Assembly: GCA_032718475.1 (NCBI GenBank)
Contig: JAUCBJ010001577.1
Location: 1 to 64,000, forward strand
Length of the DNA: 64,000 bases
DNA from: Nemertoderma westbladi
Lineage: Eukaryota > Animalia > Xenacoelomorpha
Reading direction: 5' to 3'
Shown here: piece after piece, positions 58,511 through 60,449 of the stretch
Layout: each line of letters starts with the position of its first letter
Numbering within the stretch: the first letter of the stretch is position 1
Made by a program: the position numbers and the translations under genes
The notes under the pieces: model-generated
Told to the model about the DNA's origin: nothing
The model's database searches: none
What the model saw: only the letters and a program-made list of their open reading frames with translations

Positions 58511-58640
58511 GAAGCATCTGAGGCTTATCTCGTTGGATTGTTTGAGGACACGAATCTGTGCACTATCCACGCCAATCGAGTTACCATAATGCCGAAGGAT
58601 ATCCAAACTGGCCCGTAGGATCAGAGGCAAGAGGACGTAA
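58511..58640 (+). pseudogene. H3: Histone H3 C-terminal fragment (residues 94-135 plus stop) with a +1 frameshift
   Basis: Reads [32 protein letters not shown], one extra A, then [10 protein letters not shown]. That is 38 of 42 residues identical to canonical H3 ([42 protein letters not shown]). Confidence 0.95.
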
Positions 58641-60449
58641 GGACCCGCAACAGTTTTAGACGTTATGTATCAGAAAACATTTACTTGTATTCGTAATAGA
58701 GAACATGGACTCGTATTCATTTATTTAGTTAATTCAATGCAAAATTTTAAAAAAATTTTAAATTAAAAAAAAAAATTATTTGGGTTGTAAATTGGTGAAA
58801 TTAGTTAGTGAAACAATAAATATAATATGCGTCAGATTAATAATTCTTACAGTAATCAAGTCTAACGACTTGCTAATTTTAAATAAAAGAGACAACGAGA
58901 ATTAGTATAGAACTAATAATTATGTAAAAATACAATCATATTTCATACAATAATTATTAATAAATTCGATCTATTATTAGTTGCTCAATTCTAGAACAAA
59001 ATCAACCTGAAACTAGTGAAGACCTCGTTTTGGAATTTCGAAACCACGCTGGTGCGATGCGCGATATCGTGTTTAGTTAATAAATTGAAAACTCCATCAA
59101 TTCATGTGCAACCAGTAATAAGAAATCACGATAAATGTAATTAAATAAAAATTATTCTAGAAAAAGTTTCCTTCAAAAGTATGAAGTCTTGGCATTGGTG
59201 ACGCGAAACTAGGCTAGTGAGATTCAGGATATTGCGTTTAATATAAAAATCGAAAACGCTATCGAATTCCATAAATGCGTTAATAAAATACTGCAACTTT
59301 TTTGAAATTTGTAAAATTCTAGAACTAGAAAAAATTAATTTTTGAACGGCGTTGTTTGGGGTTTCGAAACATGGATAGACTGAAAGAGGACATCGAATTA
59401 AGTTGAAAAATAAAAACCCCATCGAATTTGGACAAAGCGTTCCGGAGTTATAGCGGATCGAAAAAAATTGACCCCCCCCAGTCGCCAAAAATTTACAGTA
59501 ATTTAAAATTTTGCAAAAAAAATTTTTTGCGTTATTTTTGATGGCGAATCGATTGGCAGTACTGGCTACGAAAAAATTTTTTTGAAATTTTTGGTCAGAA
59601 AAAAAAACATGGAAAAAGTATATTTTTAAAAAGATTCGTCTTTGCCTATGGTCAGAGAATGATCCAACTCTGTAACTTGGCAATCGCTCAAATCCATTCA
59701 GCTGAATGGCACAGTAGAGTAAACTAAAGTAAATTCCCTATACAATGTTCTGAAGGGGAGACTGACAGAGAGTAATCCAACAATAAAACATTTTGCAATA
59801 ATGTTGGCATTAATGTAGCCAACACACTGTGTACTAAACCGTCATTCAGCTTACATTAGCAGAGGGAGAAACTTGGATACTCAACTAGAATGCATTGGGA
59901 AGAGTTATTCAGCTGAGGCAATAATAGATTTCAAACTAAACCAACCAGTTTATATTTGCTTTGACAGGGCCTAAACAAACAGTATGGGTGTACTAAGTAC
60001 AATAATCTTGGCAACCTCATCGATTTATACTAAGCCTTGTGTAGAAATCCATTACATAAGCCATTTTTCATTACGACACCAGCTGTTATTGGTGTTATTT
60101 TACCATTGCGCCTATGGCGTTTTTTCGTTTATGTCTATTTTTCGAGCCCACGGCTCATGGACGAAATAGCGGAACATACCAGGGACCTTAGAATCCCGGT
60201 ATCTAGCCGCTGTGAAAATTTCATCAAAATCGTTAGAGTAGTTTTGGCTGTAGATCAGTCAGTCAGCCAGCCACGAGCAATTCTTACAGTAATGAACCTC
60301 TCGGTTCCTAACTAGTGACGGGCCTAGCGGCCCGATAAGGAACCGACTTTTTATTTCAAATAAAAGAGACAACGAGCTCGGCTCGGTCTTGCACGATTGG
60401 GCACGATTAAGTTCGACTTGGCTTGATCGGCTCGGTTTGGCTCGATTAG

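Follow-up and report, generated by a model that had tools for sequence, protein, structure and literature searches.

A non-LTR retrotransposon family of Nemertoderma westbladi with a histone H3 fragment, probably the last exon of H3.3, at its 3' end

A non-LTR retrotransposon of Nemertoderma westbladi carries, one base past the stop codon of its single intact open reading frame (ORF), the 3' end of a histone H3 coding sequence, which probably derives from the last exon of an H3.3 gene. The element occupies positions 54427-58841 (4,415 bp) of the window, the whole stretch of 64,000 nucleotides that was analysed, and the H3 piece is a family trait as far as sequencing contigs show. On balance, the favoured account of its origin is that splicing joined the last H3.3 exon to the 3' end in place of the native 3' UTR, after which the family spread. 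Papers are cited by PMC number for the parts of their text that were available. The element and its site consist of the following features.

11700..64000, forward strand: array of tandem units of about 1.5 kb (91-96% alike), host site of the element
54416..54426, forward strand: 5' copy of the 11-bp target site duplication (TSD)
54427..54687, forward strand: 5' UTR, AT-rich, about 29% GC
54688..58509, forward strand: single intact ORF, first ATG to TAG, 1,273 amino acids (P0001)
54754..55320, forward strand: Ulp1/SENP-type cysteine protease, P0001 residues 32-220 (Pfam PF02902, E = 8e-16; SENP1, E = 1e-19)
55540..55617, forward strand: putative N-terminal zinc finger C-x2-C...H...C, residues 294-319 (motif scan)
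56506..57075, forward strand: reverse transcriptase (RT), residues 616-805, YLDD at 765 (Pfam PF00078, E = 2e-14)
57925..58158, forward strand: CCHC knuckle and restriction-like endonuclease core, residues 1089-1166 (relaxed form of the PMC12857005 pattern)
58510..58510, forward strand: single T between the stop codon and the H3 piece
58511..58640, forward strand: captured H3 piece, likely the H3.3 last exon, codons 94-135 and stop, with one extra A
58641..58841, forward strand: AT-rich tail, possibly from the host 3' UTR, 24% GC, with a short TAA-like end
58842..58852, forward strand: 3' copy of the TSD

The H3 piece matches the Pfam Histone profile (PF00125) far beyond chance (E = 3e-13, profile positions 85-117 of 122). 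An extra A in the run at 58605-58607 produces a frameshift, with 32 residues before it and 14 after a shift of one base, and the stop codon ends at 58640. In the usual H3 numbering, from which the residue numbers and the labels A111T, K115N, E133K and A135T are drawn, T, N, K and T are present at codons 111, 115, 133 and 135. The tail holds AATAAA at 58815, ATTAAA at 58762 and an A-rich stretch at about 58741-58778, and a histone stem-loop pattern has no match in 58401-59000 even with two mismatches. The first-pass annotation of this DNA had described H3 residues 94-135 with their stop one base past the TAG and inside the TSDs, and an AT-rich tail with AATAAA and no stem-loop; the sequence, the Pfam match and the TSD count given below agree with the former, and the tail is as described. 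Its pairing of a decayed H3 piece with an intact ORF also holds, as the frameshift stands beside 1,282 open codons in the ORF (stop-to-stop frame 54661-58509, TAG at 58507-58509). Its four substitutions and frameshift are all present in the window copy, although one of the four, A135T, is not found family-wide (see below). The H3 piece is a non-coding passenger that makes no protein, and it most likely serves as a passive 3' UTR.

The 11-mer AATTCTTACAG flanks the element at 54416-54426 and 58842-58852. It occurs 30 times in the window, and 28 of the 30 copies are uninterrupted junctions of tandem units, each followed by TAAT; the remaining two border the element, and the units on either side of it are normally spaced (1,521 and 1,437 bp). 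Because the other 28 copies belong to uninterrupted repeat units, the two bordering copies are a duplication inside which the H3 piece sits. LTRs are absent, and the TSD, together with a depth that rises in the 3' direction, is a sign of target-primed insertion with 5'-truncated copies. No match of the element to itself was found in the window beyond its flanks. The 3' terminus reads TAA-T-AAT and merges into the TSD, consistent with a short TAA-like tail as in relatives. Contigs of two public sequencing runs, X2 and X3, have a common loose end behind 58845, which marks a further copy whose 3' flank differs or whose end is longer; as a single case, this argues against strict targeting of the tandem repeat.

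The array itself (11700-64000) comprises about 30 tandem units. The units, which contain a (CAGT/CAGC)n microsatellite and a short GC-rich hairpin with a T run behind it, resemble the DINE-1/HINE non-autonomous Helentrons of PMC4067079. Their depth exceeds 100,000 in runs X1 and X2, as in a major satellite-like repeat. Arrays of (GGCTC)n and degenerate 10/20-bp repeats at 24303-35458, 45901-47194 and 60427-62050 expand at a single fixed place in the tandem unit. A sub-repeat of 107-108 bp comes after each of these arrays, and they account for the spurious long ORFs in these intervals. Adjoining the repeat array at 1165-8897 is an intron-split, Helitron/Helentron-like Rep-helicase gene, possibly its autonomous partner, with these domains:

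1165..1992 and 3095..3751, minus strand: Helitron_like_N
5028..6887, minus strand: DUF6570

To follow the junction through the family, contigs of X1, X2, X3 and X5, out of six public runs, were aligned to 54250-59050. Three of the six runs (two samples, two studies) hold 76-79% of the element's words. The ORF-H3 junction is bridged by contigs in two of the four runs, from two samples and two studies, namely X2 record 14 (58445-58571, depth 1368) and X5 record 27 (58300-58575, depth 49), each with more than 31 bases on either side. Among the pieces listed (31 of 2,040) there is no bridging contig for X1 or X3, and none of the pieces listed covers the element from end to end or crosses from its 3' end into the repeat. 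At 58605 the depth without the extra base is 0 of 5864 in X1, 0 of 1219 in X2 and 0 of 1410 in X3, and 20,018 of 20,018 in X5. Thus the element copies have a common frameshift, whereas X5 holds host-like sequence without it, and a frameshift common to the copies indicates a single capture of the H3 piece followed by inheritance rather than repeated uptake from the host. Capture at the level of the family, as had been proposed, is therefore upheld by the junction in two of the four runs and by the frameshift in all X1-X3 depth. At 58635, G accounts for 89% (X1), 100% (X2) and 100% (X3) of the depth; A135T is private to the window copy, and the frameshift is common to the family. X2 record 15 (58545-58692, depth 1219) shows no gap and just two differences from the window. 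As one of these is at 58635, two or more of A111T, K115N and E133K belong to the majority form.

Contig depth, which is not copy number, is 161-345 (X1), 255-421 (X2) and 191-338 (X3) over the element body; in X2 and X3 it reaches about 1,200-1,500 at the 3' end. This 3-4-fold rise toward the 3' end is the usual profile of many 5'-truncated copies. Canonical H3 clusters are ruled out as the source of the high 3' depth, since all X1-X3 depth at 58605 is frameshifted. The profile of X5 is transcriptome-like (20,000-76,000 over the H3 piece, 125-1,332 over the tandem repeat, and the element body without cover); this run is recorded as DNA by guess, and its profile was not taken as evidence of element expression. 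The abundant X5 contigs reach at least the H3 stop codon, the bins being too coarse to fix their end. In the last bin (58758-58918), where the depth of 435 is mostly flank, they provide no cover, and 58714-58784 was skipped as repeat; this result was not used as evidence on the origin of the tail.

The ORF has a full-length C-terminus, with a median difference of -1 amino acid against 120 relatives. As it ends where the ORFs of relatives end, no protein sequence was lost at capture. The Ulp1 domain retains the protease motifs HW-L and Q-N---CG. Of the listed ORF differences from other samples, 19 that are fixed in one or more runs were classed, with a partial pair at 57507-57508 set aside. Of these 19, 13 are synonymous, where roughly a quarter would be expected in the absence of selection. 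The ORF is thus under selection while the H3 piece is broken. Part of the 5' UTR (about 54445-54541, some 97 bases) is covered 3-9 times as deeply as the body and has shared differences at 54485 and 54498; X5 record 26 extends from this module for 1.1 kb into unlike sequence, which suggests that a sister family or another, more abundant repeat has the same 5' module. X1 record 1 has about 66 extra bases at 54620-54624 relative to the window copy, with a 5-base overlap, and the window copy may have a 5' UTR deletion near 54620.

The element is an R2-group non-LTR retrotransposon, with a single ORF in which the RT is followed by a CCHC knuckle and a PD-(D/E)xK-type endonuclease, and with no N-terminal AP endonuclease. 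Within this group, membership of the CRE clade is likely, judged by the motifs IRPIAVG, DFSNAFN and QQGDP, which resemble those of metazoan CRE families. The definition of the R2 group, characterized by a restriction-like endonuclease, follows PMC3636483. CRE1/2, SLACS, MoTeR and FoTeR likewise have one ORF with RT, CCHC and restriction-like endonuclease, and CRE elements make a TSD on insertion (PMC3636483), as this element does. It differs in lacking a spliced-leader, telomere or U2 target, and in an endonuclease spacing slightly off the published CRE pattern, C-x1-3-C-x7-8-H-x3-4-C-x9-10-RH[DN]-x19-33-E-x9-21-[RK]PD-x12-14-[DE] (PMC12857005), which it matches only in relaxed form, with three spacers one residue off, RHS for RH[DN] and RVD for [RK]PD. 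An N-terminal Ulp1-like protease, as in this element, is a feature of some NeSL/Utopia members (NeSL, Utopia-1_TSP; PMC4640811). Unlike NeSL-type insertions, which delete their target, this one duplicated it, and no insertion into spliced-leader or U2 sequence is seen (0 Rfam matches in the window). A host exon at the 3' end, which this element probably has, is not described for CRE, NeSL or Utopia in the available parts of these sources.

The best full-length relatives are 45-48% identical to the element. In 80 metagenome loci, tblastn of the 32-residue H3 piece gives a best E of 0.13, against 2e-31 for the positive control; 63 of the 80 include the ORF end, 47 of these 63 with at least 150 bases behind it, and at 27-46% identity the loci are uninformative about sister families. 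With phmmer, neither the H3 piece nor the Ulp1 domain has a match in 339 relative proteins, and among viral contigs 28 pattern matches include no relatives. The H3 capture therefore appears to be lineage-specific. The relatives mostly have short AT-rich UTR ends, with (TAA)3 or longer on the sense strand in 32 of 80 and on the antisense strand in six. A conserved short 3' hairpin, then an A-run and (TAA)n, was spotted by eye in 21 of 80 (including L010, L027, L037, L053, L075 and L076), and is a candidate 3' recognition element of its subgroup. The element lacks it, yet the closest loci (L046, L007 and L003) show no evident hairpin of this kind either, so a loss by the element is not claimed. 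Among 15 long relatives picked by hand, two have an N-terminal OTU domain and nine a C-terminal UCH/USP match (P0022, P0200, P0075, P0099, P0217, P0230, P0231, P0247, P0251, P0293 and P0220 are the relatives with ubiquitin-family proteases). Proteases of this kind thus recur in the lineage and are possible counter-silencing modules.

Two X5 contigs point to the source of the H3 piece. They diverge from the window exactly at 58511, and their upstream continuation reads A-A-I-G-A-L-Q. H3.3 is marked by A87, I89, G90 and S96 (PMC7766983); the first three are present upstream in the two contigs, and S stands at the third codon of the H3 piece. Canonical H3 genes are intronless and end in a stem-loop (PMC7766983). 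On these sequence features the source was very probably H3.3, not canonical H3, and the earlier proposal of a captured H3/H3.3 3' end is borne out by the H3.3-type residues in host-like contigs. The break falls on the Q93|E94 codon boundary. A morpholino against exon 3/intron 3-4 of zebrafish h3f3a (PMC3447937) has a reverse complement that reads A-L-Q and then GT, which places the last H3.3 intron at Q93|E94 in at least one animal; the suggestion that the last H3.3 coding exon starts near residue 94 is thus correct for this gene. In the literature searched, usable invertebrate H3.3 intron positions were not found (PMC6560044, in the part available, gives no codon positions), and the fish intron is taken as an analogue for that of the host gene, which would lie at the same boundary.

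Under the favoured account, an ancestral copy would have sat in sense orientation inside an intron of H3.3. Splicing would have joined a cryptic donor one base past the element stop to the host acceptor of the last H3.3 exon, giving an RNA that had the complete ORF but no native 3' UTR and that ended at a downstream polyA signal. Reverse transcription of this RNA would have made a new master copy, whose lineage would then have gained the frameshift and spread by target-primed reverse transcription, leaving copies with the H3 piece as their end, both full-length ones and many that are truncated at the 5' side. A stop codon so near the junction would escape nonsense-mediated decay. The base at 58510 is likely the sole remnant of the native 3' UTR at the junction. 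The exonic bases before the join (stop codon and T) differ from the usual AG of a strong donor. Taken by itself, the splice route is rather probable. It is favoured over template switching because the join sits exactly at the H3.3 exon boundary. Transduction or template switching had been named as the route; the exon boundary instead favours splicing from an intronic copy and speaks against template switching.

Template switching remains the foremost alternative, although an unlikely one. Here the RT would start on H3.3 mRNA, copy as far as codon 94 and jump to element RNA at the stop, and the chimera would found the family. Template jumps of this kind are established for the RTs of non-LTR elements, and X5 is very rich in H3-matching contigs. 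An AG before the join is common to the host (...CAG|GAA) and the element (...TAG-T-GAA, with one extra base). Read in this way, as AG microhomology with a single base added, the junction fits template switching. However, the model gives no reason for the break to fall exactly on a codon boundary with a known H3.3 intron; in a transcript several hundred bases long with a few exon junctions, a random break would hit one of them in an estimated 1 in about 100 cases.

Less probable again is an unspliced 3' transduction, in which an ancestor with little or no 3' UTR, at or beside codon 94 of an H3.3 gene or processed pseudogene, would have been read through to the polyA signal. Such transduction is common for LINE-1 (PMC4859970) and has been proposed for TART-A and nxf2 (PMC7785250), and some relatives are nearly devoid of a 3' UTR (in L050 the stop is directly followed by TAA repeats), but in the element the stop and codon 94 are separated by no remnant of a tail, TSD or intron, and such remnants are typical of transductions (PMC4859970). 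A site-specific ancestor that targeted histone H3 genes and carried the downstream target along, as the first-pass annotation had considered, is very improbable. Restriction-like-endonuclease clades are mostly site-specific for multicopy genes (PMC4640811); against this, the source looks like H3.3 and not the clustered canonical genes, the window copy sits in a tandem repeat, H3 sequence is found in none of the 80 related loci, and the sense bias of their TAA repeats points to tails rather than to a gene target. Finally, a one-off chimera or assembly artefact, which the lack of a spanning contig among the pieces listed would allow, can hardly be reconciled with a junction bridged in two studies, a frameshift common to all X1-X3 depth, and a TSD with normal unit spacing on both sides.

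The probable capture of an H3.3 exon is a histone example of a process already known, the acquisition of gene sequence by LINE UTRs or by splicing. TART-A of Drosophila melanogaster holds nxf2 sequence in the 3' UTR of most or all full-length copies (PMC7785250), and telomeric transposable elements have made at least nine gene captures, including piwi/aub (PMC13534243). As in these elements, a host coding fragment lies in the UTR of a non-LTR element and is common to the family copies, here as far as the contigs show, and its coding piece of 130 bp is similar in size to their 140-235 bp. Transduction is the route proposed for those elements, which are of the Jockey clade, are telomeric and capture piRNA genes, with measured piRNA cross-targeting; the present element has a restriction-like endonuclease and a histone gene fragment, with the join one base past the stop at an exon boundary. 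Subfamilies founded by splicing between an element and the genome, as proposed here, include human SVA_F1, which gained MAST2 exon 1, and gibbon LAVA/PVA, which gained their 3' domains (PMC4859970). These are non-autonomous and moved by LINE-1, and the gain in SVA_F1 is a 5' exon, whereas the H3 element is itself autonomous and has a new 3' end. Decayed histone fragments, with stops and a frameshift amplified in a transposon family, are also found in eight copies of Helentron-Cq-32A of Culex (PMC4067079), which differs in being a rolling-circle DNA transposon with internal fragments of 83-84% identity and no RNA step. No report of H3 or H3.3 capture by a non-LTR element was found in the titles and abstract openings searched, a scope outside which lie Repbase Reports and most subscription journals.

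If the favoured account is right, an autonomous restriction-like-endonuclease retrotransposon has replaced its entire 3' UTR with a host exon without losing activity. Such a lineage would need no native 3' RNA element for template choice. R2, by contrast, needs its native 3' RNA element. H3.3 retrocopies with TSDs are then predicted. In this species, decayed H3 3' ends, which on a rough guess from depth number in the tens, can confuse the annotation of H3 and the mapping of reads.

That the H3.3 exon was kept for its benefit is an improbable proposition. Small RNAs against the element would then also hit H3.3 mRNA, so that silencing lowers H3.3, and the element protein, because it moves RNA without the native 3' UTR, would also copy H3.3 mRNA. 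DAXX/ATRX deposit H3.3 at endogenous retroviral elements (PMC7766983). If true, this would be a retrotransposon shielding itself with, or attacking, a chromatin gene that is unable to evolve away at the protein level, and the H3.3 shield would stand beside the element's own SUMO protease. In flies, piRNA cross-targeting is seen at high identity and almost none at about 80% (PMC13534243). Since 45 of the 46 X5 contigs aligned are at least 90% alike, in the range of fly cross-targeting and above the 80% that is too low, the family would, if the favoured account is right, allow a clean test of whether captured genes make transposons fitter beyond the piRNA genes of Drosophila.
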